From Candidatus Thorarchaeota archaeon (GTDB taxonomy: Archaea; Asgardarchaeota; Thorarchaeia; Thorarchaeales; Thorarchaeaceae), in NCBI GenBank assembly GCA_003345545.1, contig PRDH01000016.1, positions 1 through 52,946 of the forward strand: a stretch of 52,946 nt of DNA, in the 5' to 3' direction. The notes beneath the pieces are model-generated. The model was not told the origin of the DNA and ran no database searches. It saw only the letters and a list, made by a program, of their open reading frames with translations. The position numbers and the translations under genes were made by a program. Position 1 is the stretch's first letter; each line of letters starts with the position of its first letter. Below, piece after piece: positions 6,716 through 33,244 of the stretch.

Positions 6716-6724
6716 GAAATCGCC

Positions 6725-7018
6725 TCAGACCATCTTCAGAATCTTGGAGTCACCGGGCTGGATAATCGCAATAGCAGAAACCATGAATGGCTTGCCTACA
6801 ATCTCACCAAGGTCCCATGACGTCCCTTCGAATTCCTGCACTTTGACCTGTGCTAACTGAGCATACCTTGTAATATCCTCGTATTCATCCTTAGGACAGT
6901 TGGCAGCAACAACTACCAGCTTGGCCTCACCCTTCTTGATTGAGGAGATTGATGATTTGACACCTATCTTGCACTTCCCTGTGGCTACTGCACTTGCTAT
7001 TGGTTGATTCAAGCTCAT
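6725..7018 (-). CDS. rpl30e: 50S ribosomal protein L30e
   Basis: AKLVVVAANCP, LGEIVGKPFMVS, PGDSKIL. Confidence 0.95.
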   Translation of the reverse strand: MSLNQPIASAVATGKCKIGVKSSISSIKKGEAKLVVVAANCPKDEYEDITRYAQLAQVKVQEFEGTSWDLGEIVGKPFMVSAIAIIQPGDSKILKMV

Positions 7019-7114
7019 TTTATGCGCCTCATTTGATTGTCGGCAGACCGAGTGGTTTGCGTCTAATGATTTCCTGTTTTAATGTTTCCGCAGTGGTCCC
7101 TCTGATGCGTTTCC

Positions 7115-8482
<1,368 letters not shown>

Positions 8483-11140
8483 CTACTCCATCCTTCCTTT
8501 ACCAAGGACTTTCTCGATTGCTATGTCAATGTTTACTGACCGCCCGTGATCTGACTTGCTTGGATCAACTCCGTCATCGCCAAAACGAAATTGGACGATC
8601 CTTCCAGGTGCTGTTCGCACAGTACCATCCGTTTCTACCTTGAGATCTTGAAGCGCCGTCATTAGACGCCTTTGCATGTAACCTGAAGTTGAGGTTCGTA
8701 CTGCTGTGTCAACAAGCCCCTCGCGCCCTCCTGCTGCATGGAACCAATATTCGATTGGATCCAAGCCGCTCTTGTAGCTAGACTTGACAAACCCGTGTGC
8801 TCGTGCACCAAGGTCTCCTCTCTCAAAATGCGGCAGAGTTCTACCCACATACCCTCTACTAATACGTTCACCTCGTACAGCCTGCTGCCCTACAACAGCT
8901 GCCATCTGTGATAGATTGAGCCTTGACCCTCTTGCACCGGTCTGCGCCATGATGACTGCTGTGTTCTCCAGACCCAGATGCTCCCCAGCCACCTCACCAG
9001 CAGAGTCTCGCGCCTCAGCTAGAGTTGCCTTGATTCTCTGTTCGAGGGTTTCTAAGAGGGTCTGACCAGGATTCGGGTCGAACTCGCCTCTCTTGTAGGT
9101 CTCGATGAGTTGATTCACTTTATTGTCAGCCTCGGAGAGGATTTTCTCAATTCTCTGTGATGCAGCACGGGGCAACGTAACATCATTCAGGCCCATAGAG
9201 AATCCTCTGTCAGTGATGAGACGGACAAGGAGTTTTCCCACCGAGTCCATGAACACCCTGGCTGCAGTCGATCCCTTCTCCTTGATTATTCTGTGAAAGA
9301 GCGAGTCTGGCTCTCCTGCGCCGAATGCCTTCTCATCTATAACACCAAATAATAGATTGCCATCGCGTATGACATCAAAGGAGTCAAACTCACAGTCTTC
9401 ATGCTTACAGACAGTGCACTTTCTACATATGTTCGCTTTGAACGAGATATTGATTCCTTGAGGAATGAATATGCTGAAGATCTGTTTGCCAGTCCATAGC
9501 TCTATGGGAGCCTTGATGGCTGGCTCAGGAAGACTCTGTGCTCGATTCGCAGCTGCCAGCAACTGGTTCACCTGGTCTTTTGTGTAAAGACTTGACTTGC
9601 GAGTTAGGAGAAATGCTGCTGAGATGTAGTCTTGAAGTGCCCCAATGATTGGTCCGCCATATCTTGGTGAGAGTATCTGTTCCTGTACTCGCATGAGTAC
9701 TCTTGCTTCTGCGCGTGCCTCCTCAGACTGGGGGACATGCAGATTCATTTCGTCACCATCAAAGTCAGCATTGTAAGGTGGGCATACATACAGTGACAAC
9801 CTGAAGGTTCGGTACGGCATGACCCGCACCTCATGTGCCATGATGGACATTCTGTGGAGAGATGGCTGCCTGTTGAATAGTACAATATCGCCGTCAGACA
9901 GGTGACGCTCTACTATGAAGCTGGGTTCGATTGTGTCAGCAATAATAGATCGGTCCTTAACAAACCGAAGGTCCACTCTTCTGCCATCTGTTCGAATCAA
10001 GTAGTTACAACCAGGATGTCTGTCAGGGCCCCGAATGACGAGCTCCTTCATCTCATCTATGTTCCATTCGGTCACACGTTCAGGAATAGTCAGAATCTTC
10101 GCAATCTGTTCAGGAACACCCACCTCGTTCATGCTGAGGTTGGGGTCTGGAGAGATGACAGTACGTGCCGAGAAGTCTACACGCTTCCCTGAGAGGTTGG
10201 AACGGAATCTACCCTCCTTCCCCTTTAGCCTCTGGGCAAGTGTTCTCAAAGCCCTTCCTGATCTATGCCGAGCAGGCGGTATACCGCTCACACCGTTATC
10301 AAAGTAGGTTGTACAGTGGTACTGCAGAAGTTCCCAAAGATCTTCGACGATAAGTTGTGGAGCTCCCGCATCTAGATTTTCACGGAGCCTCTGATTTATC
10401 CTGATAATGTCAATAAGCTTGTGACTGAGGTCATCCTCGCTCCTGACTCCAGACTCAAGAGTTATAGACGGTCTGACGGTGACTGGAGGAACTGCAAGTA
10501 CTGTCAGAATTGACCACTCAAGTCGTGCGGCTTCGGGATTGACACCAAGTAGGCGATAGTCATCGTCTGAAACGTTTTCGAGTCGTGCTCTGATATCAAT
10601 AGGTGTGAGTCTAACAGACCCAGCCTCACCGACTTCATAAATCGAGGTGGGCTTCTCGAGCTTGAGTTTGAGTTGCGGCTGCTCGCAATGAGGACAGGTC
10701 TTGACCTTTGCAGCTCTCTTGAGAAGCTCATTAGAGAGATTAGCAGTCTTCTGGCCCATCTCTGGATACCTCCTGAATAGCTTCTGAAAATGATCAGTTT
10801 CCTCGTCTGTCAGGAGGATTCTGTTGCACTCTCTGCATATGGCACGGAGGACTTTATGGATGACCTTTGAATAGCCCTCGTGCATGATTGGTCGTGCAAG
10901 TTCTATGTGACCAAAGTGGCCAGGACAATTACCGACCCTATTCCCGCAGGTCTTGCAGCGCTGACCAGGATCAATCACACCCAACTTGGGGTCCATGATA
11001 CCCGAATCGATAGGATAGCCGTCCTCATCATAAGTATCAGCTACGACTATCTGTGCAACAGACATCTTACGGATGTCATCAGGCGATAAGAGTCCGAACT
11101 CGATTGAATCAATCTTCTTAGTGGTAAGGCCAGTGATCAT
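8483..11140 (-). CDS. rpoA1: DNA-directed RNA polymerase subunit A'
   Basis: YNADFDGDEMN catalytic motif; Zn-binding CKTC/CPGHFGH. Confidence 0.99.
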   Translation of the reverse strand: MITGLTTKKIDSIEFGLLSPDDIRKMSVAQIVVADTYDEDGYPIDSGIMDPKLGVIDPGQRCKTCGNRVGNCPGHFGHIELARPIMHEGYSKVIHKVLRAICRECNRILLTDEETDHFQKLFRRYPEMGQKTANLSNELLKRAAKVKTCPHCEQPQLKLKLEKPTSIYEVGEAGSVRLTPIDIRARLENVSDDDYRLLGVNPEAARLEWSILTVLAVPPVTVRPSITLESGVRSEDDLSHKLIDIIRINQRLRENLDAGAPQLIVEDLWELLQYHCTTYFDNGVSGIPPARHRSGRALRTLAQRLKGKEGRFRSNLSGKRVDFSARTVISPDPNLSMNEVGVPEQIAKILTIPERVTEWNIDEMKELVIRGPDRHPGCNYLIRTDGRRVDLRFVKDRSIIADTIEPSFIVERHLSDGDIVLFNRQPSLHRMSIMAHEVRVMPYRTFRLSLYVCPPYNADFDGDEMNLHVPQSEEARAEARVLMRVQEQILSPRYGGPIIGALQDYISAAFLLTRKSSLYTKDQVNQLLAAANRAQSLPEPAIKAPIELWTGKQIFSIFIPQGINISFKANICRKCTVCKHEDCEFDSFDVIRDGNLLFGVIDEKAFGAGEPDSLFHRIIKEKGSTAARVFMDSVGKLLVRLITDRGFSMGLNDVTLPRAASQRIEKILSEADNKVNQLIETYKRGEFDPNPGQTLLETLEQRIKATLAEARDSAGEVAGEHLGLENTAVIMAQTGARGSRLNLSQMAAVVGQQAVRGERISRGYVGRTLPHFERGDLGARAHGFVKSSYKSGLDPIEYWFHAAGGREGLVDTAVRTSTSGYMQRRLMTALQDLKVETDGTVRTAPGRIVQFRFGDDGVDPSKSDHGRSVNIDIAIEKVLGKGRME

Positions 11141-14100
11141 CTAGATCATCTCCTTGAGTCTGAGCCGGGTAGCAAGACCCAGTGACATCATTTCTTGTAT
11201 CAGTAGTTTGAAGGCATATGAGACCACAACACTACTGATCTTGGCGTTTGAGCCACAGATTGGACAATAATATTGGTCTTTGTTACGGTCATAGACACCG
11301 ATGAGCCCGCACTCCTCACAGACGAGCATGTTACTCTTGTCCGACTCGTCCAAAAGACGACCTTTGAGGAGGATAGCAGCACCATGTCCAATGAGCACAT
11401 CACGTTCCATCTCTCCGAACCGGAGGCCACCCTCGCGAGCACGACCTTCAGTTGGCTGACGTGTCAGAATCTGGACAGGTCCTCGTGCTCTGGCGTGTAT
11501 CTTGTCGGCCACCATGTGATGCAACTTCTGATAGAAGATGACACCCATGAACACGTCGACCTTGAGTTTCTCTCCTGTGATACCAGAGTACATGGTTTCG
11601 CGGCCATTGTGTTTGAGACCATGCTTGCGGAGTATATCGAACAGCTGCTCCTCAGTGACACCGCAGAACGGTGTTGCATCCTGCTGTTCGCCATCCATAC
11701 ATGCAGCCTTACCAGCAACCATCTCCAGAATCTGTCCAATGGTCATTCGGCTTGGAATAGCATGAGGGTTGATGAGCAAATCTGGTACTACACCATCCTC
11801 GGTGAACGGTAAGTCCTGTTGTGGCACAACATAGCCAATGACTCCCTTCTGCCCATGACGCGATGCATACTTGTCACCGAGCTCTGGAATTCGCAGGTCA
11901 CGTACTTTCACTTTGACTAGGCGGTTGCCATCAATGGTTTCCGTAAGAATTACGCTGTCCACAACGCCCGCCTCTCCATGACGCACAGCCACAGAGGTTT
12001 CGCGGCGGTTGGGGGATGAAATCTCGAATTCCGAGTACTCTTCAAGGAATCGTGGAGGAGAGGTCCTGCCAATGAGTACGTCGCCTCCCTGTACTTCTAC
12101 TTCGGTCTCAATGACTCCATCTTCGCCAAGATTCCTGTACGACTCTGAAGCCCTGTACCCTCTAACGCTGCGATCTGGAATCTCGAACCTGTCTTCCTGA
12201 CCACCGGGATACTTGCGTTCTTCGCTCTCATAGACTCGAGCAAAGGTGCTTCTTCCTAGACCTCTCTCAATGGAGGCCTTGTTCATAATGAGGGCATCTT
12301 CAATATTGTATCCCTCGAAAGACAGGATTGCTACAACAAAGTTCTGTCCTGCAGGTCGCTCCTCGTAGCCAATAGAGTCCATGGCACGGGTCTTCACCAG
12401 AGGTACCTGAGGATAGTGGAAGAAATGAGACCGTGTGTCTGCTCGATATCTGAAATTCGCTGCCGGTACTCCGACGGACTGCTTTGCCATGCCAGCCATG
12501 TACACATTACGTGGAGACTGGTTTCTCTCTGGGAATGGGATTAGCGCTGCAGAGATGCCAAGAATTGTAGATGGCACAATCTCAAGATGAGTCGTGTTTG
12601 GACCTATGTCGGGAGGATACATAGCAATGAGGGTGTTTTCTTCCTCTTCAGCATCGATGAACTCTACGATGCCATTCCGTATTAAGTCTAGAAAGCCCCA
12701 CTCTCCGTCTACAATCATACGCAAGTGCTCATCAGTAAGACGACTCTTTCCATTCTCAACAACAATTACGGGTCTTCTCACTCGCCCAGCGTCACCGTTG
12801 ACCTGAACCTCATGGCTGTCCTCGTAGTAGGCAACATTGGTCTGGTTATCAATCTCTCCAGCACGACGTTTCTGCCGGAGTGTCTTGACCAGCACTTGTG
12901 GTGCGGGATGAATTCCAACAAGCCGCCCATTGAGAAAGACATCAGATCCCTTCCGGCCACGTTTGCCGTGGAGCTTCTCGATGGGTTCAACTTCTGCATT
13001 AATCATTGCACGCTCGACTATGTCTTCTTCAGTTCCAACTGAGATGTATGCCATCATTGCGATGTTCTTCACAAGACCACAGTTTGGACCCTCGGGTGTT
13101 TCGTTTGGACATATTTTACCCCAGTGAGTGGAATGCAGGTCTCGAGCCTCGAAATGAGGCTGAGATCGTGATAGAGGCGAAACCACCCTTCGTAGATGTG
13201 AGAGCGATGAGATGTAGTTAGTACGATCAAGAAGCTGGGATACCCCTGCCTTGCCACCAACCCAGTTACCTGTAGCAAGAGCGTGTTTCAGTCTCTGAGT
13301 AATCACGTCTGCTCTGACTGCTGTGCGAATGTTTGGTTTGCGACCTCTGACCGCTGTGCGCTCAAGTTGATACTTGATATCACGGGTCAGAGAATAGAGC
13401 GCTACCCTGAACAGTGACATCAGCAGGTCACCAGAGAGCTTCAATCTCTTGTTAGCATAATGGTCTTTGTCGTCTTGTTCTCGTTTTCCCAAGACTAGCT
13501 CAAGCAGTCGTTCAACCATCTGACCGAGATAGTATGCCTTTTGAAGTCGGCTATCATCTTCAGTTCCGATGTGAGGAAGCAGGTAACGGTCAAGCACCTT
13601 TTCAGCACGTGCAAGTCTGTACTCCTTTGTCTGACCGACTGCAACACGTTTCCCGATGAAGTCAAGAGCGTTGACACGAGTTGACCCCTCCTCTTCATCC
13701 CCAGTAGCGTTGATTGGTGCAGACTGCTCAATAGTGACGATTAGTTCGTTTCGGATCTCATCATCATCAGAGATGACATCCACAATCTCCCTATCAGACT
13801 CAAGACCTAGTGACTTCATCAGAATGGCAAGGGGAATCTTTCCTGGAACAGAGGGGAAAGAGACTCTCAGTTCACCGGTCCGCTTTCTCTCAATAGTGAC
13901 AGGAGCTCTGAAACCACGGGATGTTGAGAAGACTTTGGCAATATGGGTGAAGCTTGAGCTCTTGCTCGCCTCCTCGATGAGAATTCGGTTTGGCGCCAAA
14001 TCTTCCTGCGTTACCAGAACACGTTCAGATCCGTTGATTATGAAATAGCCACCGGGGTCCTTTGGATCCTCACCAAGGGCAATGAGTTCTTCATCGGTCT

Positions 14101-14512
14101 TACCGTGAAGATGACATTGTTCGCATCGAAGCATGATTGGCATGTTGCCAATGTAGATTTTCAGGGTCTCAAGCCGGGTTGATACAGACCCCTCCTTTCG
14201 GACCGGGGTCATGTTCAGGAAGAGTTTGCTGGCGTACGTGAGGTTTCTGATTCTTGCCTCGTTGGGAGTCAGATTGTGTTCGCTCCCATCGGCCTCTCTA
14301 ATCGTAGGTTTTCCTATCTCGATATCGCCCAATTCTACGACATAACCCTCGATCTTAGGAGTCAGCTTTCCAACACTGTCAACTACTTGCTGAAGCTCCT
14401 CCCGTATGAACCGATTAAACGAGTCAAGATGTTGGCCGACTAGTCCATAATGGTCGAAGAACGCCTCAATGACAGGCCAATACTTTTCCCGATCTTTAGT
14501 ACCCGACGCCAT
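11141..14512 (-). CDS. rpoB: DNA-directed RNA polymerase subunit B (unsplit)
   Basis: GGYFIINGSERV, GDKYASRHGQKG, GGLRFGEMERD. Confidence 0.99.
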   Translation of the reverse strand: MASGTKDREKYWPVIEAFFDHYGLVGQHLDSFNRFIREELQQVVDSVGKLTPKIEGYVVELGDIEIGKPTIREADGSEHNLTPNEARIRNLTYASKLFLNMTPVRKEGSVSTRLETLKIYIGNMPIMLRCEQCHLHGKTDEELIALGEDPKDPGGYFIINGSERVLVTQEDLAPNRILIEEASKSSSFTHIAKVFSTSRGFRAPVTIERKRTGELRVSFPSVPGKIPLAILMKSLGLESDREIVDVISDDDEIRNELIVTIEQSAPINATGDEEEGSTRVNALDFIGKRVAVGQTKEYRLARAEKVLDRYLLPHIGTEDDSRLQKAYYLGQMVERLLELVLGKREQDDKDHYANKRLKLSGDLLMSLFRVALYSLTRDIKYQLERTAVRGRKPNIRTAVRADVITQRLKHALATGNWVGGKAGVSQLLDRTNYISSLSHLRRVVSPLSRSQPHFEARDLHSTHWGKICPNETPEGPNCGLVKNIAMMAYISVGTEEDIVERAMINAEVEPIEKLHGKRGRKGSDVFLNGRLVGIHPAPQVLVKTLRQKRRAGEIDNQTNVAYYEDSHEVQVNGDAGRVRRPVIVVENGKSRLTDEHLRMIVDGEWGFLDLIRNGIVEFIDAEEEENTLIAMYPPDIGPNTTHLEIVPSTILGISAALIPFPERNQSPRNVYMAGMAKQSVGVPAANFRYRADTRSHFFHYPQVPLVKTRAMDSIGYEERPAGQNFVVAILSFEGYNIEDALIMNKASIERGLGRSTFARVYESEERKYPGGQEDRFEIPDRSVRGYRASESYRNLGEDGVIETEVEVQGGDVLIGRTSPPRFLEEYSEFEISSPNRRETSVAVRHGEAGVVDSVILTETIDGNRLVKVKVRDLRIPELGDKYASRHGQKGVIGYVVPQQDLPFTEDGVVPDLLINPHAIPSRMTIGQILEMVAGKAACMDGEQQDATPFCGVTEEQLFDILRKHGLKHNGRETMYSGITGEKLKVDVFMGVIFYQKLHHMVADKIHARARGPVQILTRQPTEGRAREGGLRFGEMERDVLIGHGAAILLKGRLLDESDKSNMLVCEECGLIGVYDRNKDQYYCPICGSNAKISSVVVSYAFKLLIQEMMSLGLATRLRLKEMI

Positions 14513-21367: not shown

Positions 21368-21589
21368 GGTTTCAATCCTCAATTTGTTAACAATAGTGCA
21401 TTGATATTTAAGTTGAATGGTTTCCAAATGGTAAGTGGCAGAAACGCCCACTCAGATGACTCAAGAGAATCGCTAGGCAGGAATCGGTAGGAGCGACTGC
21501 AATTGGTTTCATTGTGTCGGGGTTACTAGCGTCTTTAGAGCCTACTTCAAGCGTGAGTTCTACAAGTCGTTGAGTGTTAATCGGAATTG

Positions 21590-22465
21590 CTACATGCTCG
21601 TAAATACACCGAAGACAACCAGGCAGTCACCTGCAGCATGAAATAGGACTGCACCCCAGATGCTGCCGGTCTTTTGTGTCAGATAACCCCAGGCGAGCGA
21701 GAGAGGAAAAGCTATCAGGAGAAGAAACAGAATCAGATTCGTTGTATAGGTGACCTGCGCGTGAATGAGAGTGAATACTATTGCAGCCAGAAGATTGGAT
21801 AGATTCGCTCCTAGAAAGGGCTCGAATCGTTTCAGAAGCAGGCCTCTAAAGAGCAATTCCTCCATGAATCCGTTCGAGAGCACGAATAGCAGGATCCATG
21901 GGGATAACGAAAGTAGTCTGTCCACTATGCCTACCTGATTTGCCAGGGGGATGTATGCAATTATCGGAAAGACGATGAAGGCAATGATACCGACGACAAG
22001 TGCAATGCCAATTCTGCCTCTATTGAGGTACATGGACTCTCGATTGGCTCCGATGAGCATCATGAGTACTAGGAGGGGGATGACCCGTAGGACTGCTTCA
22101 GAGAACTTGGCGACGGCTATTCCAGATGGAGTTGCAAGAGAGAACCCGAGAAGCTCTACTAGGAACCCACTGAACAGGCTACTGAGAAGAACTACGGCTC
22201 CAGCCGCAAAAAAGGCATAGAACACCTGAAAGTACTCTCTGCCTCTCTTACTTATTCGTAACAAAACAGCAGCAGCTAGGAGTGCTGCTATGATGCAGGC
22301 ATGTATGACTAGCAGTATCGTGATTGAAACAATCGACGATAGTGGGATTATAGCAAATATTGCTGACTCTAACATGAAGAAGAGTAGAAAGTAACCAGCT
22401 CTCTTGGACCAATGAGCATTGGGTGGTTTCTGACAGCCCTGTTGTTCAGTTTCTATGTCGCTCAA
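21590..22465 (-). CDS. CPBP (CAAX/Abi) intramembrane metalloprotease
   Basis: EELLFRG, FTLIH, AVLFH; multiple TMs. Confidence 0.92.
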   Translation of the reverse strand: MSDIETEQQGCQKPPNAHWSKRAGYFLLFFMLESAIFAIIPLSSIVSITILLVIHACIIAALLAAAVLLRISKRGREYFQVFYAFFAAGAVVLLSSLFSGFLVELLGFSLATPSGIAVAKFSEAVLRVIPLLVLMMLIGANRESMYLNRGRIGIALVVGIIAFIVFPIIAYIPLANQVGIVDRLLSLSPWILLFVLSNGFMEELLFRGLLLKRFEPFLGANLSNLLAAIVFTLIHAQVTYTTNLILFLLLIAFPLSLAWGYLTQKTGSIWGAVLFHAAGDCLVVFGVFTSM

Positions 22466-22574
22466 GTGAAGGCCTCTTTTCTGTTTCTTACTGGATTCTA
22501 ACCAAGTAATAAAGATGGAGCGATCCCGTCTGTCATATGACCCCAGTACTTAATTCAGGCTTTATCGTCATGTT

Positions 22575-23129
22575 TTGGTGATGAAGCGAGTGCTGATTCT
22601 TGGACCTAGTGGCTCGGGAAAGTCGACCCTAGGTGAAAGACTTGGTCGAATTCTTGGTATTCCTATTATTCACTTGGACAAATATTACTGGAAGCCAAAC
22701 TGGGCATATACTCCAGAAGACGAATGGAGAGCCAAGGTCAAGAATCTCATCACTTCAGACTCGTGGGTCATGGACGGAAACTACACGTCAACGCTCAGAC
22801 TTCGTGCGTCCGCCGCAGACACCATCATCTTCATTGATGTTCCTCGAAGATTGTCGTACCTCCGCATATTCAGTAGGTTCCTTAGATTTCGAGGTAGAAC
22901 AAGACCAGATCTTAGCGAAGACTGCCCAGAGAAGATTGACTGGGACTTCATCAGATGGATCTGGGACTATCCTCGCACTCGGAGACCCGCGATTCTCAGG
23001 TTTCTGGAGAAGCAGAAGTCAATGAAGAACGTGTTCGTTCTTCAGGGACAGAGGGAGGTTGAAGCATTCCTTCGTTCTCTTGGAAAAAATGGAGATGATC
23101 AGAGGACCGGCGAACCGTCATTCCTCTAG
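22575..23129 (+). CDS. Topology-modulation protein (FlaR-like P-loop kinase)
   Basis: GPSGSGKST, HLDKYYW, WVMDGNY, RPDLSEDCPEK. Confidence 0.9.
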   Translation: MVMKRVLILGPSGSGKSTLGERLGRILGIPIIHLDKYYWKPNWAYTPEDEWRAKVKNLITSDSWVMDGNYTSTLRLRASAADTIIFIDVPRRLSYLRIFSRFLRFRGRTRPDLSEDCPEKIDWDFIRWIWDYPRTRRPAILRFLEKQKSMKNVFVLQGQREVEAFLRSLGKNGDDQRTGEPSFL

Positions 23130-23141
23130 CAGTTCCAGAGG

Positions 23142-23753
23142 ATGATTATAGTACGCGCCAACTACGGAGTCCTAGATTATAAGGAAATAGAGCATAGTAT
23201 GGATGGGGGATTGATGGTGAAGCGCCCGTCACGATCTCAGGGGCTTCTTGTTGCAGGTCTGCTCCTAGTTCTTATAGGAAGTCTCCTGCCTCTCCGTCTC
23301 CCGAGCTGGACCAGTCAGCGTACTTTTGAGATCGGCTCCTCAGGCGTCGATATTCCAGTGAGCATACTGTATGGTGAGGCATTGGCGATCAGTGTCTCAT
23401 TTGATGACTCGGCCGTTCCTAGTGACTGTTGGGTATGGGCGCAGATTGACTACCAATATCCTACGAAGAGCATTGGTGAAACTGCAATCCGCCTCGAGGG
23501 TCAGCGTGAAGTAGACTTCACGTTTAGCTGGGCGAATGTACACCTTATTCCTTTCTTCGTCACTTGCTTCCTGGTCAGACTATTCTATTGGGGTTCAGAG
23601 ACCGTCATGGTCAATGTCACTATCAGTAGATTGACAAACATAGCCACTCTTGCTGGTCTTGGCCTCTTGGTCGCTTCAGTCTTTGTTGTCATCGCGCCAG
23701 TCATGATTGGCATGTTTGGTAGGTGGAGAAGTAAGGAACAACTGATGATATAA
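23142..23753 (+). CDS. Hypothetical membrane protein (TM - beta-rich domain - TM)
   Basis: N- and C-terminal hydrophobic helices; start uncertain. Confidence 0.6.
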   Translation: MIIVRANYGVLDYKEIEHSMDGGLMVKRPSRSQGLLVAGLLLVLIGSLLPLRLPSWTSQRTFEIGSSGVDIPVSILYGEALAISVSFDDSAVPSDCWVWAQIDYQYPTKSIGETAIRLEGQREVDFTFSWANVHLIPFFVTCFLVRLFYWGSETVMVNVTISRLTNIATLAGLGLLVASVFVVIAPVMIGMFGRWRSKEQLMI

Positions 23754-23893
23754 TGGTCGGAGTGCCCGGATTTGAACCGGGAACCAATGGATAACTATGA
23801 GAAGCTATCACAATAGCAGCTCTCTACAGTCCATAGCTTATGGCCTACTGTACTGCAGATGTGCAGCAGACTGCCAGGTTGAGCTACACTCCG
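23754..23893 (-). tRNA. tRNA-Tyr(GUA) with two introns (22/23 and 37/38)
   Basis: Cloverleaf after removing 23839-23870 (BHB TGGC/GCCA) and 23793-23823 (BHB CTGT/ATAG); CCA. Confidence 0.95.
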
Positions 23894-23969
23894 CTTTGAC
23901 TTCTGCCCTAGTTTATTGTGTTAAAAGGATTACTCCTTATCAACGCAGAATTCGGGACGTAGCTCTTGA

Positions 23970-24400
23970 CCTATCTCCTGCTATTGTTGAGTGAACGTCA
24001 ACTGCAAGAAACTTCTGTGTTTCACCGTTTCTCGACCTGATGTCGCCATCACACTTTGGCACCACCCAAAGGTCAGTCAAGACTTCATCCCCAGTCATTG
24101 AGACACTGTCCCTCCTACGGGTCTGGTTTCTTTCTCCTGTATTTCAGGCGGAGTATCATTTCCGCAGACAGAGAGCTTTTCCACAGTTCTTTCCACGGCG
24201 GGGTCATTCTCACTCTTCTCAGATTCGTCGCCGAAGTTGAGAAGGTCCGATTGGACGAAGTGATCAGCCGCGGACTCCCTGGAGTCTGATACATAACTCC
24301 TCTTTTGGAGTAAGGACATCAGTTGTGGGTTCTTCCCTGTGTTCACAGAGTCCACCCACTTTCCTCGTCCTCTCACAGAATGCAATGAGTCCGTGAGCAT
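23970..24400 (-). ncRNA. Putative omega/reRNA of the TnpB, overlapping its 3' coding region
   Basis: Dense series of hairpins ending in GTTGACGTTCAC followed by a candidate guide TCAACAATAGCAGGAGATAGG. Confidence 0.55.
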
Positions 24401-25802
24401 AATGAGACGTGCAGCAATATTGATGGCACCGTTCCTGTCCGCATTGGTTTCATGGCCACATGATGGGCAGACAAAATGGTTCTGTTTAGGCCGCCTCCCT
24501 CTTGAGCTGCACTTCCAGCATAATGAGGACGTCCAGGCCTCTGAGACTACCTTGTAGCGGGCCTTCTTTCCATCGACAACCCATCCAAGCTGTGAGAGCT
24601 GATGCTTCAGACCATTGGTAATCCTTGCAAAGGACCATGAGTTGATCATTTTTCGATGTGAAAGGCTGGTATGACTTCCTCGACGGGCTTTATTCCGTAT
24701 ATGTTTCAGCCTGCCAAGAGCCACGTAGAGAGTGTGTTTCTCAGAGAGTTGAATGATATATTGTAGGAGTTCTCGAAGAAGCAAGAGATCATATTCTCTT
24801 GAGACATCTTCGCGCTTCGACTTCAATTGCCTCAGTCTCTTGGCGATGTTGTCATAAGACTGATGTCTGCTTCGACGAGATTCCATTTCGCTCTGAAGTT
24901 CTGCAACAAGCTGGTCATACTTTTCAATGGCATTTGCCTTGTCTTGCTGGACAAAGTATCTAGTCTCTCGAACCTTTTCAGGTGTTATCAGGGCAGTACA
25001 CGCAGCTTTCTTTATTCCCAAGTCGATTCCTAATACTGCCGGTGGAAGATTGCCCTCAGCAGATACTGAGTCCTCATTCAACCTGACAGCAAAATGGACC
25101 CACCACCGTCCTCTTCTATCATTGATGAGCTGAAGAGCTTTTATCTTCCCTCTTTCAATTTGACCAATGTGAAACTGACACATCTTTAGAGGAATGCGTA
25201 TACGGTCGTGTATGGACTTCTTCTTTGGAGCAGAGTCAAAGGAGTCCTGCAGGTCCAACCACCAACGCGAAGCTGATGATGTGGTTTCTAGCAGCCTGAA
25301 TTTTAGAGAATATATCCATCTAGGAATTCTTCCAGATTTGATGGTCTCACAAGGTCGTGCTGACCTACTCCTTCTTCTCTTTCTGAGTGCCAAGTAGCTC
25401 TCGTATAGAGCTATTGCTGTCCTTCGGCACTCAATAAGTTCACCAGAAGAACATCGTGGAAACTTCTCTTTCATATCATGAAGGACTTCGAGGCGTTGTG
25501 GATATTTGGACGCCACATGTACTGCTGTGATTGTCAGATGATCGAGAGCTCCATCGTTGATTCGTGTCTTGTAGCGACCTGATAATAAGTTGCTTTCATG
25601 TTGCTCGATTACACCTAGGAAGGAACGGATTATACGGGTGTCCCGGCCGACAATCTGACGAAGCCTCTGTTTTTTCAGCTCCGTCATCGTATCCCAAGCG
25701 ATAGGAACCTTTACGGTGATTGTCACACCTTTGGAACGACCCATTGCATTCGCCTACCAATTTAAACTTCTGACCTGTTTCGGTCAGCAGTTGAGTTCAC
25801 TC
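23989..25802 (-). mobile_element. Putative non-autonomous TnpB-only element bounded by 16/17-nt inverted motifs
   Basis: GAGTGAACGTCAACTGC (23989-24005) versus GCAGTTGAGTTCACTC (25787-25802); no transposase gene and no clear TSD. Confidence 0.55.
24095..25744 (-). CDS. tnpB: TnpB/Cas12f-like RNA-guided endonuclease with rearranged RuvC-II
   Basis: RuvC-I LGIDLG; canonical Glu position reads VALGRL; SEAWTS; Zn finger CWKC..CPSC; RuvC-III NADRNGAINIA. Confidence 0.9.
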   Translation of the reverse strand: MGRSKGVTITVKVPIAWDTMTELKKQRLRQIVGRDTRIIRSFLGVIEQHESNLLSGRYKTRINDGALDHLTITAVHVASKYPQRLEVLHDMKEKFPRCSSGELIECRRTAIALYESYLALRKRRRSRSARPCETIKSGRIPRWIYSLKFRLLETTSSASRWWLDLQDSFDSAPKKKSIHDRIRIPLKMCQFHIGQIERGKIKALQLINDRRGRWWVHFAVRLNEDSVSAEGNLPPAVLGIDLGIKKAACTALITPEKVRETRYFVQQDKANAIEKYDQLVAELQSEMESRRSRHQSYDNIAKRLRQLKSKREDVSREYDLLLLRELLQYIIQLSEKHTLYVALGRLKHIRNKARRGSHTSLSHRKMINSWSFARITNGLKHQLSQLGWVVDGKKARYKVVSEAWTSSLCWKCSSRGRRPKQNHFVCPSCGHETNADRNGAINIAARLIMLTDSLHSVRGRGKWVDSVNTGKNPQLMSLLQKRSYVSDSRESAADHFVQSDLLNFGDESEKSENDPAVERTVEKLSVCGNDTPPEIQEKETRPVGGTVSQ

Positions 25803-25866
25803 CCCCTCTTGTTCGGAGGATGTCTTTTGAACTCGTATTGATGTAGAAACGGGGTAATTTAAACTT
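25759..25866 (-). promoter_or_regulatory. Twin AATTTAAACTT boxes (tandem TATA-like promoters) upstream of tnpB
   Basis: Exact 11-bp direct repeat at 25759-25769 and 25856-25866 enclosing two hairpins. Confidence 0.45.
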
Positions 25867-26004
25867 ATTAAGTAATTTTAACAAACATTCGTTGTACTAT
25901 CTCTCTGATGCCCATCTAGGCTCCATAGAAGCGAAACGAATATTAGAGAATTGATTGAATAGGTCACAACATTCAAAGAATAATGCAGGAAAGGTGAACA
26001 CGGC

Positions 26005-29000
26005 ATGCTGGAGGGCAGAGGACGACCACGCAAGGTGATGCCAGTCCACCCCAATCTGGTCCTGACCCGGGCCCTGAAGACCGCCCTCTCTACAGCAGTG
26101 TACCTGCAGCGTGCACTGAAGAACAAGAACACTGCCCACCTCTATGACAGTTCACGCAGGAGCCTGAGAAGAGCCGAGCGAAGATACCTGAGACTGAAGG
26201 CACACGGCGCCGCACACTACACACACCTTGCCAGGGCAGAGCACACCATCCGAAAGAACTCCCTGCAGATGCTGTTCGAGAACGCGGCAGCCTACGAGAA
26301 CCGGGAGACCCGACGGGTCAAGAGCTCCGATAAGACAGTGGGTCCCCTGAACCAGAGGCTCAACATCGGCGGGGCTGCCCTCAGGGACTTTGGCATGACC
26401 ATGTTCCCCTTTCCGGATCAGGTCCCCCTGCGCGGGTCGCCCGATGTGACCTATGGATATCCGGAGGACTCCCTGTGCCATGAGGTGGTGCCTATCCACA
26501 ACATCCCTGAGCTGGACTTCATCGATGCCTGCAGACAGCACATGCAGGTCCTGACCACCTGGTGCTACGTATTCGATGTCCCGCTGAACGACACCGCAAA
26601 GTACGCCAACCTGTTCCTCCTCAGAGCACGACCCTACCTTGAACGGATATATTCCGAGAACAGGTATGGAGAGCCCGGTTTCAGAGAGGGCACCATCAGG
26701 ATTCTCAGAGAACTCAAGGATGACATCGCCAGACACTACAGGGTCCGCTCCGGTGATACCCCGACCGTGACCTCAGCATCCGAACATCGGGAGCCGGAGT
26801 ACAGCACCGACTTCTTCAGGGACCAGATGAGAGAGGCCCGAGAGCAGGGGATTGTCTCAGGCGCAATGGATGAGGTCGACCGGATTCTGGCAGGCGGGTC
26901 GATCATCAAGACCATGCCGGATGAAGAGACCCTTGAGGAGAGACCCGCCCCCTGCCTGACAGACGAGGATGTCAGGTACATCTGGCAGCGGCTCTTCGAG
27001 CTGAGCGGTCAGAAGGGGAGCCAGGTCCACAGGCAGATCACCAGCCTCTTTCCCAGCCACTGGAACATTGGTCGAGCGATACGCTTCGGAGATGAACTGG
27101 GAGGCGAGGATGGATACCTACTCTGCTCCGAGATCCCTATCGACACGAGACTGGGAAAGGGGAGGATAGACCTTGTCCTGCTCAGACGAGTGGTGACTCC
27201 GGACGGGCTCAATGTGTTCTGGAAGCCGGTCTTCATTCTGGACATCAAGACCAGACAGGGGTACTCTTGGGACCTAGGGCATGAGACCAGGGAGTCGAAG
27301 TCGAGAAGACGGCACGGTCTGCCGCTGAGAGAGATACCAGAGTTCATCATCTCTGAGCGAGCGTTCGATGACATTGAGTGGAGGGCACTTCTAGAGGGAA
27401 ATCCGACAGACACGGCAGTCACGCAGGTCGATGCCTATGCGGCTGCAGCTGCTGAGGCGTATCAGGAGATTTCCCAGACCGAGAAACCGGCTGCTATTCT
27501 GAAGGGTACTCTTTTGGTCGATGCGAGTGATGATATCAGATTGATTCGCTCGGTCGTTCGTTCCTTTGTCATCGCGGTCTTCGAACGTGCTGCTGAGTTG
27601 GACGATAAGATCCCAAGGACTCTCTTCAGCGTGACAGTGAACGAGAGAGTTCCCAGGGCGGCTATCGTCCTCCACGAACAGCAGAATCCTGAACCTTCTC
27701 AGTTGGTATCGTTCCCCGCACCCATAGTCCCGATGCAGGACCCCTTTGAGATGCTGGTTCAGACTGACAGGGACTTTACTCTCTATCTCTCTGCAGAGCC
27801 GCCCACGTCCGGAGGTACTTCTGCAGCCTGGATCTCGAAGTACTACCATGGACTTGAATACGTCAATGAGTGGAAGAATAGGACCGGCAAGTCCAACATA
27901 CTGTGGATTGACCTCGCCGACGAGTTCGTCGAGGCTGGTTTCAGAGAGTGCAGGCTCTACCTGCGTCCTCGCAGTGGGATTCCGCGCGATCAGGCTCGGT
28001 GTCATGCAGTTTCTGAGAGAACTATCTTTGATTCAATCAATGTGATGGGGCTGTTCCAGAGAGTGCAGGACTATCTATTCAAAGATCGGCCCATTCCAAC
28101 CATTCAGACCGAGAAGAGGCCAGACCTGATAGTTGTCAGTGGGTGGGACAGAGTATTCGGTTCGACGCCCTCTCCCTATGATGAGAGACTTGGAGAACTC
28201 AAATCGAGTCTGGTCGGTCAGCTGATAGAAGGTTCCGATGCTTCCTTACTCTGGTTTGATGACCCGATACCCGGTGAGCAAAACTCGGGCGTCTATGCAA
28301 CGCGAACACTGGTTCCATACCATCGCGAGTCACCATTCTTCGGACAGGTGACTCAGATCATATGGAGTCTGCCTGTTGCACCCGAGAGTGAGATTCTACC
28401 AGATGAATGGGTTCTGCCATATGCAGCAACTGCTCCTCTCTATGATGATGTCAGAATCATTGTCACCCAGAAACAGAGAGAATTCGTCGCAGAACTGGCG
28501 AATGTTCCGCCTGTCGTAGGATGGTCACGCAAGTTTAGGAGCGAGTTGCTTGAGCCCGAGTTGGAATCAATCATGGATGAACCGATACCTCAGTCGGATA
28601 TTAGGGGCAGAATCAAGATTCTTGCCTTTGATCTGATTCCATGGCTTCCCGACCTCTGGCCTCTATCGAGTGTCGGAACAGACAATGAGAGGTCAGTACA
28701 TCAACTACTGCGCGAGCTGAGAGGAGAGTACAGGGTTCCACGGAATCAGATTGTTGTTACCAGTGAGTTGCTGACCGAAGCTGTTCAGGAACCGCAATTG
28801 CTTGAGAGGATGAGATTCAGACCAAGAGGCCCAAAGAGTGGGAAGTCGTATGCCTCGCTAGCCTTGGGCACAATCAACTCTCACCGGCTCTATCGCTCAC
28901 CATATTCGATCAAGTCGAAAGAGAGGTCGTCGTACAAGAGCACTGAACCAACAGACAACGAACAGGATGTAAAGTTCCTATTTGGTCGTATGTTTACGAG

Positions 29001-30606
29001 AGTCACCCCTGAAACGCAAGATGAGTTGTTGGTGATTGAAGACCAGACGGACTCAACAAGATTGCTCATCGGGCATTTTTCTGAGTCCTCCAGAAAGGAC
29101 CAATCGGGATTTCTTTGGAGTGAGAAGGATAATGATCGGTTGCTCTCTCTGCTAGAGGAGTTCGATTCGCTGGTAACTGATGACATCTTGGTCAGAATCA
29201 CTGAGAATCAAGAAGAGCTATGGCGATGGGATACGGATGTGAAACAGTGGCGACCCCGCAGCATCATCGAGATTGTTTCAAGTAGAGTGGGACGAGTTGG
29301 TGCAATACACGGGATTCGGGAGGGGTTGCTAGACTCCAGAGAGAGAGTCGTGTCAGAATCCGGTCTGTCACAGTCCTTCAATCATCGTGTCAGACAATCT
29401 CTGTATCAATTGATAGAACAAGAGAAACTGCGAAGACCCGTCAAGATATCCCTTGAGAGAAAGAATGCGTTCTGCAATATCAGATTGCAGCAGCCTACGG
29501 ACGACGGGCTTATCCATCTGGTCGGGGTTCAGAGTGTTCCTGATCTAATTAATACTCTGAGATTGCCGTTCCAAGAACATAGGACTCTAAGATTAGAAGA
29601 CGGGAGTCAACTAAGTTGGAATCCGTTTACTGACATTGAGTACGGCGAGTTTGAGATAATCCGGCCCTATGTTGAAACAAACGCACCAAGAGATGTGGGC
29701 AGGTCTTTGCCAAAGTCAATCGAGGAACTGGTAGAAACCGGAGAAGAGCAGACATTAGAACTGGTGCTGGGTCATGACCAAAGTAGTTGTCCCCTACTGC
29801 TGAATACCGGAATGTTTCATGATAGATGTTGGACTATCACACTCAGGAATAGTAGTCTGGTTATGCCGCAGTTCGAAACCCCAATGAGTGGAAAAGAAGT
29901 CTATGGTCATTTGACTACGGGCAAGATGAGAAACGGGCAGCAGACATACAATACCGAACTATTGCTGAAGTACAGTAAAGACAGCAGGGAATTCTATGTA
30001 TATCATGAAGATGCTTGGATTCGGAGGCTTCTTCGTGAGATGAATATGAGTCTGAAAAAGCTTGTACCTGGAACATACCTCAGAGATGACGAACGGTGGA
30101 TAATCGACTATGTAGTACAAGGGAATGATGTTGAGTGGGCAGGAGTATCAACCATTTCAGGAATTCACTGGAAGAGCCGAGTGTTTCAATTCAGGCTCAA
30201 TCCAGCATCAAATCTCGAACAGGCAAAAAGTGAATTCCTTGACAGCATCGCAGCGGAGATTCCATTTGATAGTATTCTGAATCTGAATGAACTTGACCGA
30301 GAGATTGAAACGATTCTATCTAACCGTGGCTATGGTAAAGAAGGACCACAATGCAGACTCTCTGTGCTTTGTGAGGACAGGAAGATCACTGTCATTCTGA
30401 GTGAAGTGAGTGGATTGCAGCCGCGGATAGTTGACAGAAACTCCTTCATTATCGAGAAGACTGATAGTCGTGAGGCAATCTTGGAAGGATTTTACTACCG
30501 ATTTGAGTCTGGTGATTTGTCTAATTATCACATCATTAATGAAAAGGAGTTCTTCAATACCCTAGAAACACTACTTGATAAGATTGGTTTCAGGGAAGAT
30601 GACTAA
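26005..30606 (+). CDS. 1533-aa multidomain protein: AT-hook, PD-(D/E)XK-like nuclease, degenerate P-loop/RecA-like region
   Basis: RGRPRK; SEIPI..GRIDLVLL..ILDIKT..QVDAY; AEPPTSGGTS..ILWIDL..DLIVVSG. Confidence 0.7.
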   Translation: MLEGRGRPRKVMPVHPNLVLTRALKTALSTAVYLQRALKNKNTAHLYDSSRRSLRRAERRYLRLKAHGAAHYTHLARAEHTIRKNSLQMLFENAAAYENRETRRVKSSDKTVGPLNQRLNIGGAALRDFGMTMFPFPDQVPLRGSPDVTYGYPEDSLCHEVVPIHNIPELDFIDACRQHMQVLTTWCYVFDVPLNDTAKYANLFLLRARPYLERIYSENRYGEPGFREGTIRILRELKDDIARHYRVRSGDTPTVTSASEHREPEYSTDFFRDQMREAREQGIVSGAMDEVDRILAGGSIIKTMPDEETLEERPAPCLTDEDVRYIWQRLFELSGQKGSQVHRQITSLFPSHWNIGRAIRFGDELGGEDGYLLCSEIPIDTRLGKGRIDLVLLRRVVTPDGLNVFWKPVFILDIKTRQGYSWDLGHETRESKSRRRHGLPLREIPEFIISERAFDDIEWRALLEGNPTDTAVTQVDAYAAAAAEAYQEISQTEKPAAILKGTLLVDASDDIRLIRSVVRSFVIAVFERAAELDDKIPRTLFSVTVNERVPRAAIVLHEQQNPEPSQLVSFPAPIVPMQDPFEMLVQTDRDFTLYLSAEPPTSGGTSAAWISKYYHGLEYVNEWKNRTGKSNILWIDLADEFVEAGFRECRLYLRPRSGIPRDQARCHAVSERTIFDSINVMGLFQRVQDYLFKDRPIPTIQTEKRPDLIVVSGWDRVFGSTPSPYDERLGELKSSLVGQLIEGSDASLLWFDDPIPGEQNSGVYATRTLVPYHRESPFFGQVTQIIWSLPVAPESEILPDEWVLPYAATAPLYDDVRIIVTQKQREFVAELANVPPVVGWSRKFRSELLEPELESIMDEPIPQSDIRGRIKILAFDLIPWLPDLWPLSSVGTDNERSVHQLLRELRGEYRVPRNQIVVTSELLTEAVQEPQLLERMRFRPRGPKSGKSYASLALGTINSHRLYRSPYSIKSKERSSYKSTEPTDNEQDVKFLFGRMFTRVTPETQDELLVIEDQTDSTRLLIGHFSESSRKDQSGFLWSEKDNDRLLSLLEEFDSLVTDDILVRITENQEELWRWDTDVKQWRPRSIIEIVSSRVGRVGAIHGIREGLLDSRERVVSESGLSQSFNHRVRQSLYQLIEQEKLRRPVKISLERKNAFCNIRLQQPTDDGLIHLVGVQSVPDLINTLRLPFQEHRTLRLEDGSQLSWNPFTDIEYGEFEIIRPYVETNAPRDVGRSLPKSIEELVETGEEQTLELVLGHDQSSCPLLLNTGMFHDRCWTITLRNSSLVMPQFETPMSGKEVYGHLTTGKMRNGQQTYNTELLLKYSKDSREFYVYHEDAWIRRLLREMNMSLKKLVPGTYLRDDERWIIDYVVQGNDVEWAGVSTISGIHWKSRVFQFRLNPASNLEQAKSEFLDSIAAEIPFDSILNLNELDREIETILSNRGYGKEGPQCRLSVLCEDRKITVILSEVSGLQPRIVDRNSFIIEKTDSREAILEGFYYRFESGDLSNYHIINEKEFFNTLETLLDKIGFREDD

Positions 30607-30768
30607 AGAAGATATAGGGAGTTCAGTAGATTCTACTTGGTTTTGCATGCAGACGATGACATCACTCTTGAAGCATATCAGGAGTTAGGACTAAGGAACC
30701 AAGATACTTCATGGAAAGGTGAATCAAATAGTGATACGGAATCTTGAAAGGGCTGCAAGTCCTTAGAG

Positions 30769-32970
30769 ATGTGGGGGCTCTGCCCGCTGAAGCGTCCGAT
30801 TGAAGTCGCATTTCCTCTAGACAAGGTCAACAAGATAGCAGAGATGGAATCAACAGGGTTTGGCAGACGCCATTATAGGCCAGTCTATGTCATGCACAAG
30901 TGGTGGGCACGACGACTAGGTTCTGTATTTCGAGCTCTTCTTCTGTACGCACTAGCAGACAATGACCTTCAAGACTGGGATGGAAATCCGGAGAACCTTC
31001 AGGACTTTTACTCAAGAGATGTCGATTTTGGAGGAAAGACGGTACTGGATCCTATGATGGGCGGAGGAACAACGGTAGTCGAGGCATTGAGACTTGGTTG
31101 CAAGGTCATAGGAGGAGACCTCAATCCGGTAGCTTGGTTCATCGTGAAGAAGACTGTGGAGGACATTGATCCGATGGAACTCCGTCGGGCTCTGAGTGAG
31201 ATTGAGGTTGAGTTAGGGGATAATCTTCGGAAGTACTATCGTACTACGTGCCCAGAGTGTGGGAACGAAGCAGAGGGTATCTACTATTTCTACTGCAAGG
31301 AGGCACTTTGTCCAGAATGCGCAAATGCAATTCCACTAATGCGCAATTACTTCCTCTCGAAATCGCCATCTATGCAGGGCGACTATGTCGTATGTCCTCG
31401 TTGTTGGAGTGTGTTTTTAACAAAAAACGCAAAAAAAACAGCAAAATGCTCCAAATGTGAGGAAGTTTTCACACCAACGGATAGATCTCTTGTTTCAGGT
31501 CGAACGTTCAGATGCGAGAACACCTCATGCAAGACACATAGCATAGTCAAGACCATCAGAGATTCTGGGACAAGACTCAATGAGCGTCTGTACGCTGTCG
31601 AATTCTACTGCAGGCACTGTGATGAGTCGGGAAATAAGAAACTAGGAAATGGAAGAGGGTACAAGTCTGCTGATAGTGAAGACCTCGCGTTGTTGGAGTC
31701 TGCTCATAGAGAATTCAGAAGAATTCGTGATACATTACCACTGCCAGATGCGGCACTACCCCTTGGGGTGGAAACTAGGCGCGCATTAAACCACGGGTAC
31801 TTGAATTTTCAAGATATGTTCAATGCTAGGCAGCTCTTGAACCTTGGAAAGATCTATCGGTGGATTCTGGGTGTTCAAGATTGGAATCTGAGAGAGTTCT
31901 TGATTCTGGCCTTCTCAAACTGTCTAAAGTACAACAACATGTTTGCAAAGTACAATGCTACAAGAGGATTCATCACAGATATCTTCAGAACACATTCGTT
32001 TTCACCATCCCTGTCTCCTGTGGAGGCTAACTGCTATGATACCTCAAAGGGCAGAGGCGCCTTCACTGCGTTCGTGAAGCTGGTAATTGAGGGGAAGGAG
32101 TATTGCCGAGAACCATTTGAGCGAGTCTTTGATGGAAAATCGATGAAAAAAGTCACTCTTCAGAACAGAATCAATGGAAAACTGGCTCGGAACTATACCG
32201 ACCTTCATGACGGAGCAAATGTACTCCTCCTATGTGGGTCATCAGAGTCTGTTCCCATTCCTGACTCGAGTATTGATGCAGTGGTTACGGATCCGCCATA
32301 CTCTGACAATGTGATGTATTCAGAACTGTCCAACTTCTTCTATGTCTGGTTGAGAATTGGATTGAAGGAGAGGTACCAGGAATTTAGAACAGAATATGTG
32401 CCATGGGTCGATGAAGTAATCGAGAACAAGACGCAGGCGAAGGGTCGAGAGGAGTATGTACGGGGTCTAACAAAGGTGTTCTCAGAATCGAAACGAGTGT
32501 TAATTCGGGATGGCATTCTGGTTTTTACCTTCCATCATACGAAGCTCTCAGTATGGGGTGCGCTCTTAGAGGCCTTACTTCAATCCGGCTTCTATATCAC
32601 AGCAACATATCCTGTGAGAAGTGAGATGAAGGCGTCAACACACCTTCATGAGATGGAGAACATCGCGTACGACATGGTCTTTGCATGCAGAAAAAGGACC
32701 ACTAATCCAGTAACAGTTCAATGGTCTGCTCTTCGGGAGCATGTTGTTCAGTCTGTTGCTGAAACACTCGAGAACCTTCAGAAGAACGGGCTATCCACAA
32801 GTAAGCAAGACCTCTTTGCTATTGCACTTGGAAAGTTGCTGCAATTCTATTCGAAGTACTATCCTAATGTGAAAGACGAAGAACGTGAGGTGCGGCCAGA
32901 TCTAGCTCTTTCACTGATTGAAGCAGATATCACTGATGTTTTTCAGAGTGGTTCTATGTGCGGTTTATAG
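30769..32970 (+). CDS. Zn-ribbon-containing DNA adenine methyltransferase (DUF1156/COG1743 type)
   Basis: HKWWARR, motif I LDPMMGGG..GDLNP, motif IV TDPPY, several CxxC pairs. Confidence 0.92.
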   Translation: MWGLCPLKRPIEVAFPLDKVNKIAEMESTGFGRRHYRPVYVMHKWWARRLGSVFRALLLYALADNDLQDWDGNPENLQDFYSRDVDFGGKTVLDPMMGGGTTVVEALRLGCKVIGGDLNPVAWFIVKKTVEDIDPMELRRALSEIEVELGDNLRKYYRTTCPECGNEAEGIYYFYCKEALCPECANAIPLMRNYFLSKSPSMQGDYVVCPRCWSVFLTKNAKKTAKCSKCEEVFTPTDRSLVSGRTFRCENTSCKTHSIVKTIRDSGTRLNERLYAVEFYCRHCDESGNKKLGNGRGYKSADSEDLALLESAHREFRRIRDTLPLPDAALPLGVETRRALNHGYLNFQDMFNARQLLNLGKIYRWILGVQDWNLREFLILAFSNCLKYNNMFAKYNATRGFITDIFRTHSFSPSLSPVEANCYDTSKGRGAFTAFVKLVIEGKEYCREPFERVFDGKSMKKVTLQNRINGKLARNYTDLHDGANVLLLCGSSESVPIPDSSIDAVVTDPPYSDNVMYSELSNFFYVWLRIGLKERYQEFRTEYVPWVDEVIENKTQAKGREEYVRGLTKVFSESKRVLIRDGILVFTFHHTKLSVWGALLEALLQSGFYITATYPVRSEMKASTHLHEMENIAYDMVFACRKRTTNPVTVQWSALREHVVQSVAETLENLQKNGLSTSKQDLFAIALGKLLQFYSKYYPNVKDEEREVRPDLALSLIEADITDVFQSGSMCGL

Positions 32971-32992
32971 CAGGCGTGTCAGACTAGACTGC

Positions 32993-33244
32993 ATGAGAAC
33001 AACACGGGTACTGCGTACGTGGAATCGAACAAAGGCTGAGTTTGTTGAGATTCCTGTCCAGTATCCACCAGACACATCTCTATCATGTGAGGAGTGTAGG
33101 TATTATGATGACGGTTCTGGAATCTGCCTTGGTGTCGGCTCAGCATACTACATGAAGAAGACCCCACGTCATGAGTTCGTACCGCGTTATGCCGAGTGCC
33201 GAATCAGACTTCCCCCAGATCTTCTCTCTTTTGTCGAGTCTTAG
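32993..33244 (+). CDS. Small Cys-containing hypothetical protein
   Basis: CEEC..C..C; ATG 23 nt after the MTase stop. Confidence 0.6.
   Translation: MRTTRVLRTWNRTKAEFVEIPVQYPPDTSLSCEECRYYDDGSGICLGVGSAYYMKKTPRHEFVPRYAECRIRLPPDLLSFVES

Follow-up and report, generated by a model that had tools for sequence, protein, structure and literature searches.

The DNA stretch analyzed here (the window, 52,946 nucleotides of an archaeal contig) encodes a TnpB protein with a rearranged RuvC active site. A reading made from the letters alone had presented the gene as a stand-alone Asgard TnpB and a possible Fanzor relative, which raises the question of what kind of element the gene belongs to and which sites its guides recognize. 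In its sequence the locus fits one copy of a Thorarchaeota aCas1-TnpB mobile element at a tRNA-Tyr locus. The element type is known from Asgard archaea, and two guide-based features of this copy appear to have no match in the searchable literature: a 3' guide that matches tRNA-Tyr and a leader guide that is probably self-repressing. We regard an element equipped with both as the reasonably probable overall explanation. The Asgard host was confirmed by TnpB homologs named Ca. Thorarchaeota, one of them in a genome of the same genus, so that the host belongs to the Thorarchaeota. Markers for a host tree lie at 2584 to 14512 on the minus strand, where the window carries the genes for EF-1 alpha and for RNA polymerase A'', A' and B (single, unsplit).

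The tnpB gene and its site comprise the following features.

24095 to 25744, minus strand: tnpB, 549 aa, folded part approximately residues 1 to 468, with D241/E402/D436 and Gly344 at the canonical site.
25022 to 25024, minus strand: RuvC-I Asp241, DLG rather than DPG, from the homolog alignment and the motif pattern.
24713 to 24715, minus strand: Gly344, replacing the canonical RuvC-II Glu.
24539 to 24541, minus strand: Glu402, candidate catalytic Glu in the alternative position, closing strand 397-401 of the model.
24437 to 24439, minus strand: RuvC-III Asp436, NADxN type.

The protein was placed in the TnpB/Cas12f family by a PF07282 match, by an NF040570 score of 94.9 bits (cut-off, 100) and by Foldseek, whose best matches were Cas12f/TnpB. 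The 549-aa protein shows the WED/REC part and the split RuvC with a C4 Zn finger that define this family. D241 (in GIDLG), G344 (in VALGRL), E402 (in SEAWTS) and D436 (in NADRN) were each found in 120 of 120 homologs and in all 39 intact genomic copies, which bears out the earlier description of intact RuvC-I and RuvC-III Asp residues, a Gly at the canonical Glu position and a Glu 58 residues further on. E402 lies six residues ahead of the first Zn-finger Cys (C409) and is the sole invariant acidic residue between 335 and 410. In the AlphaFold2 model (mean pLDDT, 70.7) it closes strand 397-401. The D-phi-G plus alternative-Glu motif expression of PMC10711439 also matches the protein. TvTnpB, which has the same type of rearrangement, cuts DNA (PMC10530073); together with the invariant site this supports the earlier suggestion that the rearranged RuvC is probably active, and we consider TnpB a likely catalytically competent RNA-guided DNase. 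A TldR-like dead TnpB was ruled out because D241, E402 and D436 stay invariant.

The earlier description of the protein as large holds for the open reading frame of 549 aa and overstates the protein, since residues 469 to 549 are disordered in the model (pLDDT below 50) and constrained as RNA. Conservation at fourfold-degenerate third codon positions was 0.89 in this tail versus 0.55 in the folded part. From the disorder and the conserved third positions, the last approximately 90 codons are best read as a putative omegaRNA running through the reading frame.

The neighborhood of tnpB contains two further features.

26005 to 30606, plus strand: aCas1 fusion, 1533 aa, with a Cas1 catalytic-domain fold at residues ~7 to 250 and PD-(D/E)XK-like motifs near residues 376 to 417.
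30607 to 30740, no strand assigned: approximate left boundary, followed by a DNA methyltransferase gene that neighbors tRNA-Tyr in empty alleles.

The sequence-only reading had seen no cas gene nearby, but the divergent open reading frame at 26005 to 30606 opens with a Cas1-fold domain. The first 270 aa gave a predicted fold with a pLDDT of 87, and the top 12 structure matches of this N terminus were all Cas1 proteins, a casposase among them (Z scores of 13.1 to 8.9 and rmsd of 3.5 to 4.0 over 151 to 199 residues, compared with 6.8 for the next unrelated match). E79, H165 and D174 are invariant. The domain escapes the Pfam, NCBIfam and PF01867 profiles, and atlas searches gave only weak leads. 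The name aCas1 reportedly goes back to Makarova et al. 2020. Residues 570 to 1533 (~960 aa) are without a family match, and copies of the protein range from 1420 to 1880 aa. An aCas1 homolog flanks tnpB at 45 loci and accompanies both TnpB copies of this genome. It starts no more than 900 bp from tnpB in 43 of the 64 related loci with enough sequence, which removes the stand-alone status given to the gene before. The canonical cas1 genes of relatives are located elsewhere. We have good confidence in predicting the Cas1-like protein to be the integrase of the element. At L069 and L020 (G032:C6), a tandem pair of tnpB genes was found behind one aCas1 gene.

The Cas1-fold partner adjoining tnpB and a GTTCACTCA motif at 23988 to 23996, in an Asgard host, are the features of the aCas1-TnpB module, so the locus fits the aCas1-TnpB loci of PMC10691335. 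Mobility is indicated by copies of 82 to 91% identity with unrelated right flanks and by empty alleles in 10 relatives, in which an intact wild-type tRNA-Tyr lies by the same methyltransferase gene. This gene (DUF1156 type, 30769 to 32970, plus strand) is the usual tRNA-Tyr neighbor in relatives. Genomes of the host's family hold this TnpB in multiple copies, with up to ~20 matches per genome. Scanning genome contigs and metagenome contigs with one protein at a time gave one locus each, and viral scans yielded no relative and no TTNAT-flanked target. The earlier statement that neither a CRISPR array nor tnpA lies nearby was upheld: no array was present in 21500 to 33200, and no Y1 TnpA was found beside tnpB or in the 93%-complete genome. 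An IS200/IS605 element was rejected on the latter ground and type V-F CRISPR (Cas12f) because the window region has no regular-repeat array; some relatives carry irregular series of guide units. Rfam gave no match in 23500 to 31000. No terminal repeats or consistent target-site duplication could be defined, none are visible in the window, and short flanking repeats occur at some loci only. Among the loci compared, no PolB-like gene recurred as a neighbor.

Downstream of the folded part of TnpB, the following features were annotated.

23953 to 24385, minus strand (strand inferred): predicted omegaRNA, ~430 nt, covering the last ~95 tnpB codons and the 3' region.
23988 to 23996, minus strand: conserved GTTCACTCA motif, known from aCas1-TnpB loci and complementary to the leader motif at 25793 to 25802.
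23966 to 23972, minus strand: conserved scaffold end RGGTYAN, common to the leader unit.
23953 to 23965, minus strand: 13-nt main guide, exact antisense of nt 1 to 13 of the wild-type tRNA-Tyr(GUA) of relatives.
23920 to 23935, minus strand: promoter-like box belonging to the tRNA-Tyr gene, its motif shared with empty alleles.
23754 to 23894, minus strand: tRNA-Tyr(GUA) with two introns, acceptor stem mismatching the guide.

The fold of the predicted omegaRNA had a z score of -2.6. Metatranscriptome contigs from four studies, 99% identical, cover only ~24023 to 24386, and three of them end at 24383 to 24386; the runs were picked by this sequence and are contigs, so the missing cover of the remaining tnpB and leader is uninformative, and the pattern hints weakly at a separate omegaRNA.

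The antisense match of the main guide to nt 1 to 13 of tRNA-Tyr(GUA) holds for ~20 relatives. Of 37 family genomes, 24 contained the guide 13-mer and 1 the reversed control. It is kept in copies that are 58 to 77% identical, with divergence right past nt 13 to 14. A perfect guide beside a nonmatching tRNA was found at 4 loci and a mismatched guide beside a wild-type tRNA at 3, all of them kin and not independent events. At L034, the host promoter and tRNA nt 1 to 12 remain past the aCas1 end. Across the family, first guides matched tRNA genes at 12 or more of 14 positions in 9 of 42 cases, compared with 3 of 210 shuffles; no tRNA match was found for more than half of the family's guides. The context 5' of the tRNA targets is AGATT for Tyr and others elsewhere, unlike the TTNAT of the promoter target described below, and in the own genome no target of the 3' guide carries TTNAT. 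For tRNA targets, a single T as the TAM fitted ~10 cases and was dropped because L206 and L210 break the rule. These comparisons point to tRNA targeting by the 3' guide as likely, with either cutting or guided integration as a possible outcome. A guide of 13 nt may be too short to cut.

The same nonmatching acceptor stem was found guide-free in other genera, so the stem is an imported or lineage variant and escape is not proven; the idea that the tRNA was recoded to escape is weakened accordingly. The introns lie in the D loop and the anticodon loop. With default settings ARAGORN misses the gene, and with introns enabled it calls Ser; elsewhere in the genome it calls a tRNA-Sec and a doubtful tRNA-Pyl (G000:C12 8226-8316, C38 5729-5837). 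Two introns were seen in 6 of 6 element-linked tRNA-Tyr genes, and in most empty alleles the number was zero or one. Introns adjoining guide targets could act as an escape.

Other copies in the family are organized differently. In two other genera (L206, ~1400-1650; L210, ~1370-1650), a second, independent anti-tRNA-Tyr guide has an intron-bearing tRNA-Tyr adjacent; this guide corresponds to the sense strand of the anticodon arm, and its 14-nt match persists in the adjacent tRNA. The second element of this genome (L149, G000:C22, 3000-10600) has a tRNA-Gly organization, as do L067, L069 and L070: the 3' half of tRNA-Gly lies at the aCas1 stop and a whole tRNA-Gly past the omegaRNA, followed by 2 to 6 irregular units, each with a scaffold end and a different tRNA-Gly anticodon-arm spacer. 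The series has the look of a primitive guide array. In many copies the match is confined to residues ~470 to 549; these are omegaRNA-only remnants without tnpB (L029, L030, L155, L160, L171, L176), possibly guide donors in trans. A subclade near 16S rRNA genes (L077, L081-L084, with L138, L141 and L143) has conserved guides that match DNA 411 to 446 bp past the aCas1 stop. At L053 and L059, a conserved guide has a reverse-orientation match in the 5' region of the following gene, a candidate for ribosomal protein eS1.

Upstream of tnpB, a second guide unit and its putative target were located; neither this guide nor the main one figured in the sequence-only reading.

25757 to 25834, minus strand: leader guide unit with two hairpins, a scaffold end and an 11-nt spacer (25759-25769) that repeats the upstream TATA box exactly.
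25856 to 25871, minus strand: self-target, TTAAT (25867-25871) plus an 11-nt protospacer with the TATA box of the leader/tnpB transcript.

The hairpins of the leader unit had a z score of -3.5. The unit ends in RGGTYAN like the omegaRNA scaffold, and the spacer follows directly, repeating the TATA box ~97 bp upstream; the spacer DNA is itself TATA-like. Comparison of 58 copies revealed a spacer-target identity of 12.0 of 14 for cognate pairs versus 8.1 for noncognate pairs, with the match decaying past nt 12 to 15. An identity of at least 12 was reached by 83% of cognate and 2.9% of noncognate pairs, among 44 distinct spacers. Spacer changes were mirrored in the target in 55 of 60 cases (24 independent pairs), compared with 4 of 56 beyond the match. 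TNAT precedes the target box in 47 of 49 copies, versus 0 of 31 gene promoters of the genome and 9 of 470 boxes genome-wide. This covariation suggests that the leader guide likely serves autorepression of its own promoter. The simplest reading, by analogy with tracr-L (11 bp) and CreR, would be binding without cutting there. An origin of the two leader copies as a target-site duplication was dropped since the DNA just within the first copy is not conserved.

The favored mechanism has two arms of unequal strength. TnpB with the 3' guide would recognize the element-free tRNA-Tyr allele, which would favor retention or spread of the element, itself the supplier of a nonmatching tRNA-Tyr; for this arm we see the chances as slightly better than even. 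The discordant contexts 5' of the tRNA targets, the match retained at L206 and L210 and the guide-free occurrence of the nonmatching stem weigh against it. TnpB with the leader guide would bind its own TATA box through 11 to 15 bp, without cutting, and repress its own transcription, which we consider probable. Between the leader motif and the 3' GTTCACTCA there is complementarity, with one compensatory case (L049). The leader unit may therefore be loaded through pairing with the omegaRNA, the scaffold of which would probably complete its guide.

The rival reading that survives best is RNA-guided integration, in which TnpB would mainly bind by way of short guides and direct the Cas1-like protein, like Cas12k in Tn7-like CASTs. 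CAST homing near tRNA genes by partly matching guides is known (PMC11656645). All measurable guides of the family match over just 11 to 15 nt, the two genes stay paired, insertion is at the targeted tRNA, and a guide-matching sequence lies 0 to 450 bp from the aCas1 end at L034, L037, L038, L067, L081, L084 and L092. Cas12k and TldR-type proteins lose catalytic residues. The three catalytic residues of this TnpB are, by contrast, invariant, and the orientation of the target (direct or inverted) and its distance to the element end vary with no fixed offset, and we consider the reading unlikely. Its fullest form, a two-gene non-Tn7 RNA-guided transposon whose short-guide TnpB would direct an integrase of the Cas1 family to conserved genes, those for tRNAs included, take crRNA-like units in trans and repress itself, is on the sequence comparisons similarly doubtful.

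Less probable still is that neither sequence guides anything, in which case the 3' guide would be what remained of the insertion site, and the leader repeat a promoter duplicate held similar by gene conversion. Ordinary TnpB elements have as their guide nothing more than the DNA that flanks them, elements integrating in tRNA genes typically carry pieces of the tRNA at both ends, the TAM contexts disagree, and both leader copies are TATA-like and at plausible start distances. The window's guide is, however, not plain flank, since it is inverted relative to the adjacent tRNA, and it is conserved over exactly 13 to 14 nt. The leader copy is preceded by an omegaRNA-type scaffold end, TNAT is fixed at the other copy only, and a tract of 11 to 15 bp would be short for repeated gene conversion.

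As for the Fanzor question, the Gly/alternative-Glu site is not special to this locus, being the usual state of a large clade of archaeal TnpBs. Among the nearest clusters at 50% identity (~115 scorable), Gly together with the alternative Glu occurred in 95, the canonical Glu in 16 and DPG in none; more distant TnpBs of the same phylum also carry the rearranged site. Rearranged RuvC-II clades with Gly are already published (PMC10691335, PMC10530073); PMC10691335 describes the rearrangement in two major clades and eight large branches, the largest of which has Gly. Fanzors and pro-Fanzors are defined by DPG plus the alternative Glu (PMC10711439). DLG was found in 120 of 120 homologs, and this TnpB fits only the non-DPG pattern of PMC10711439. 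A quick tree was calculated with 8 viral DPG proteins, one of them closest to a mimivirus Fanzor2 and checked against 9b0l; ~20 rows failed a motif filter and were dropped, and the set contained neither TvTnpB nor Fanzor1. In this tree the query sits deep within a DLG plus alternative-Glu archaeal clade, beneath several well-supported nodes, which goes against a new local convergence; the clade includes small IS605-type TnpBs, and the DPG proteins form a separate long branch. A single origin of all alternative-Glu proteins was neither demonstrated nor rejected by the tree test (support, 90); one ancient origin that includes the Fanzors is the published picture and is unrelated to Asgard ancestry. 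That the protein is closely related or ancestral to eukaryotic Fanzors is very improbable and already largely refuted: the alternative Glu at the Fanzor position (PMC10711439), the unrejected single origin and the Asgard host speak for it, but against it stand DLG instead of DPG, no IS607 TnpA beside tnpB, rejection of a clade of the Thorarchaeota proteins with the DPG (Fanzor2-like) group in the same quick tree (p-AU, 0.007), profile and fold searches that place Cas12f far above Fanzor2 (1e-37 versus 2e-20; Foldseek rank of Fanzor2, 25), published trees deriving Fanzors from mostly cyanobacterial IS607 TnpBs (PMC10711439) and a gene that does not stand alone.

The active-site rearrangement by itself is thus ordinary and silent on Fanzor origins. 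What the element does offer is a set of testable guides and a candidate TAM for the aCas1-TnpB module. If the leader reading is true, RNA-guided self-repression, familiar from CRISPR effectors, would also operate in a transposon nuclease that lacks CRISPR, through a split guide reminiscent of an early crRNA. With a Cas1 integrase beside it, a nuclease that targets an essential tRNA gene would amount either to a selfish element that cuts and replaces or to a compact integrase steered by guides. Should the guided transposon be real, ancestors of CRISPR interference (TnpB) and adaptation (Cas1) would be united in one mobile element. In the searchable literature, outside which most subscription journals lie, no report was found of TnpB self-repression, of the leader self-guide or of the tRNA-matching 3' guide.

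Comparison with known systems places the locus closest to the Asgard aCas1-associated TnpB groups Cas1H-Asgard-1 and -2, a proposed transposon (Altae-Tran et al. 2023, PMC10691335), with which it shares the Asgard host, a TnpB adjoining a diverged Cas1 and GTTCACTCA downstream of tnpB. PMC10691335 put the possible guide ahead of the motif, whereas in the window the scaffold continues to RGGTYAN with the guide after it; the leader self-guide, the tRNA-matching guides and the carried tRNA copies are absent from its main text. With the RIIr TnpBs, TnpB2 and TvTnpB, the protein has in common the Gly at the canonical Glu position, an alternative Glu six residues ahead of the Zn finger, DLG and NADxN; compared with RIIr TnpBs it is larger, has a Cas1-like partner instead of Y1 TnpA and has a second guide in the leader. 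It resembles Fanzor2 and the pro-Fanzors in the position of the alternative Glu and in the Zn finger and differs from them in lacking DPG and an IS607 TnpA and in its separate branch. The leader resembles CreR, tracr-L and crlRNA, which autorepress CRISPR effectors (10.1101/2023.03.10.532045; 10.1101/2023.03.03.530964), in directing a short, partly matching guide (11 bp for tracr-L) to the effector promoter beside a PAM-like motif; the window, in contrast, holds a transposon TnpB free of CRISPR, and neither paper mentions TnpB. Short guides to tRNA-gene sites recall the homing of type V-K CASTs by delocalized crRNA, and a Cas1-family integrase as the likely mobility enzyme recalls casposons. 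Compared with CASTs and casposons, the element shows no TnsB/TnsC/TniQ, no recurring PolB-like neighbor and no terminal repeats or duplication that could be defined, and it keeps its nuclease site intact.
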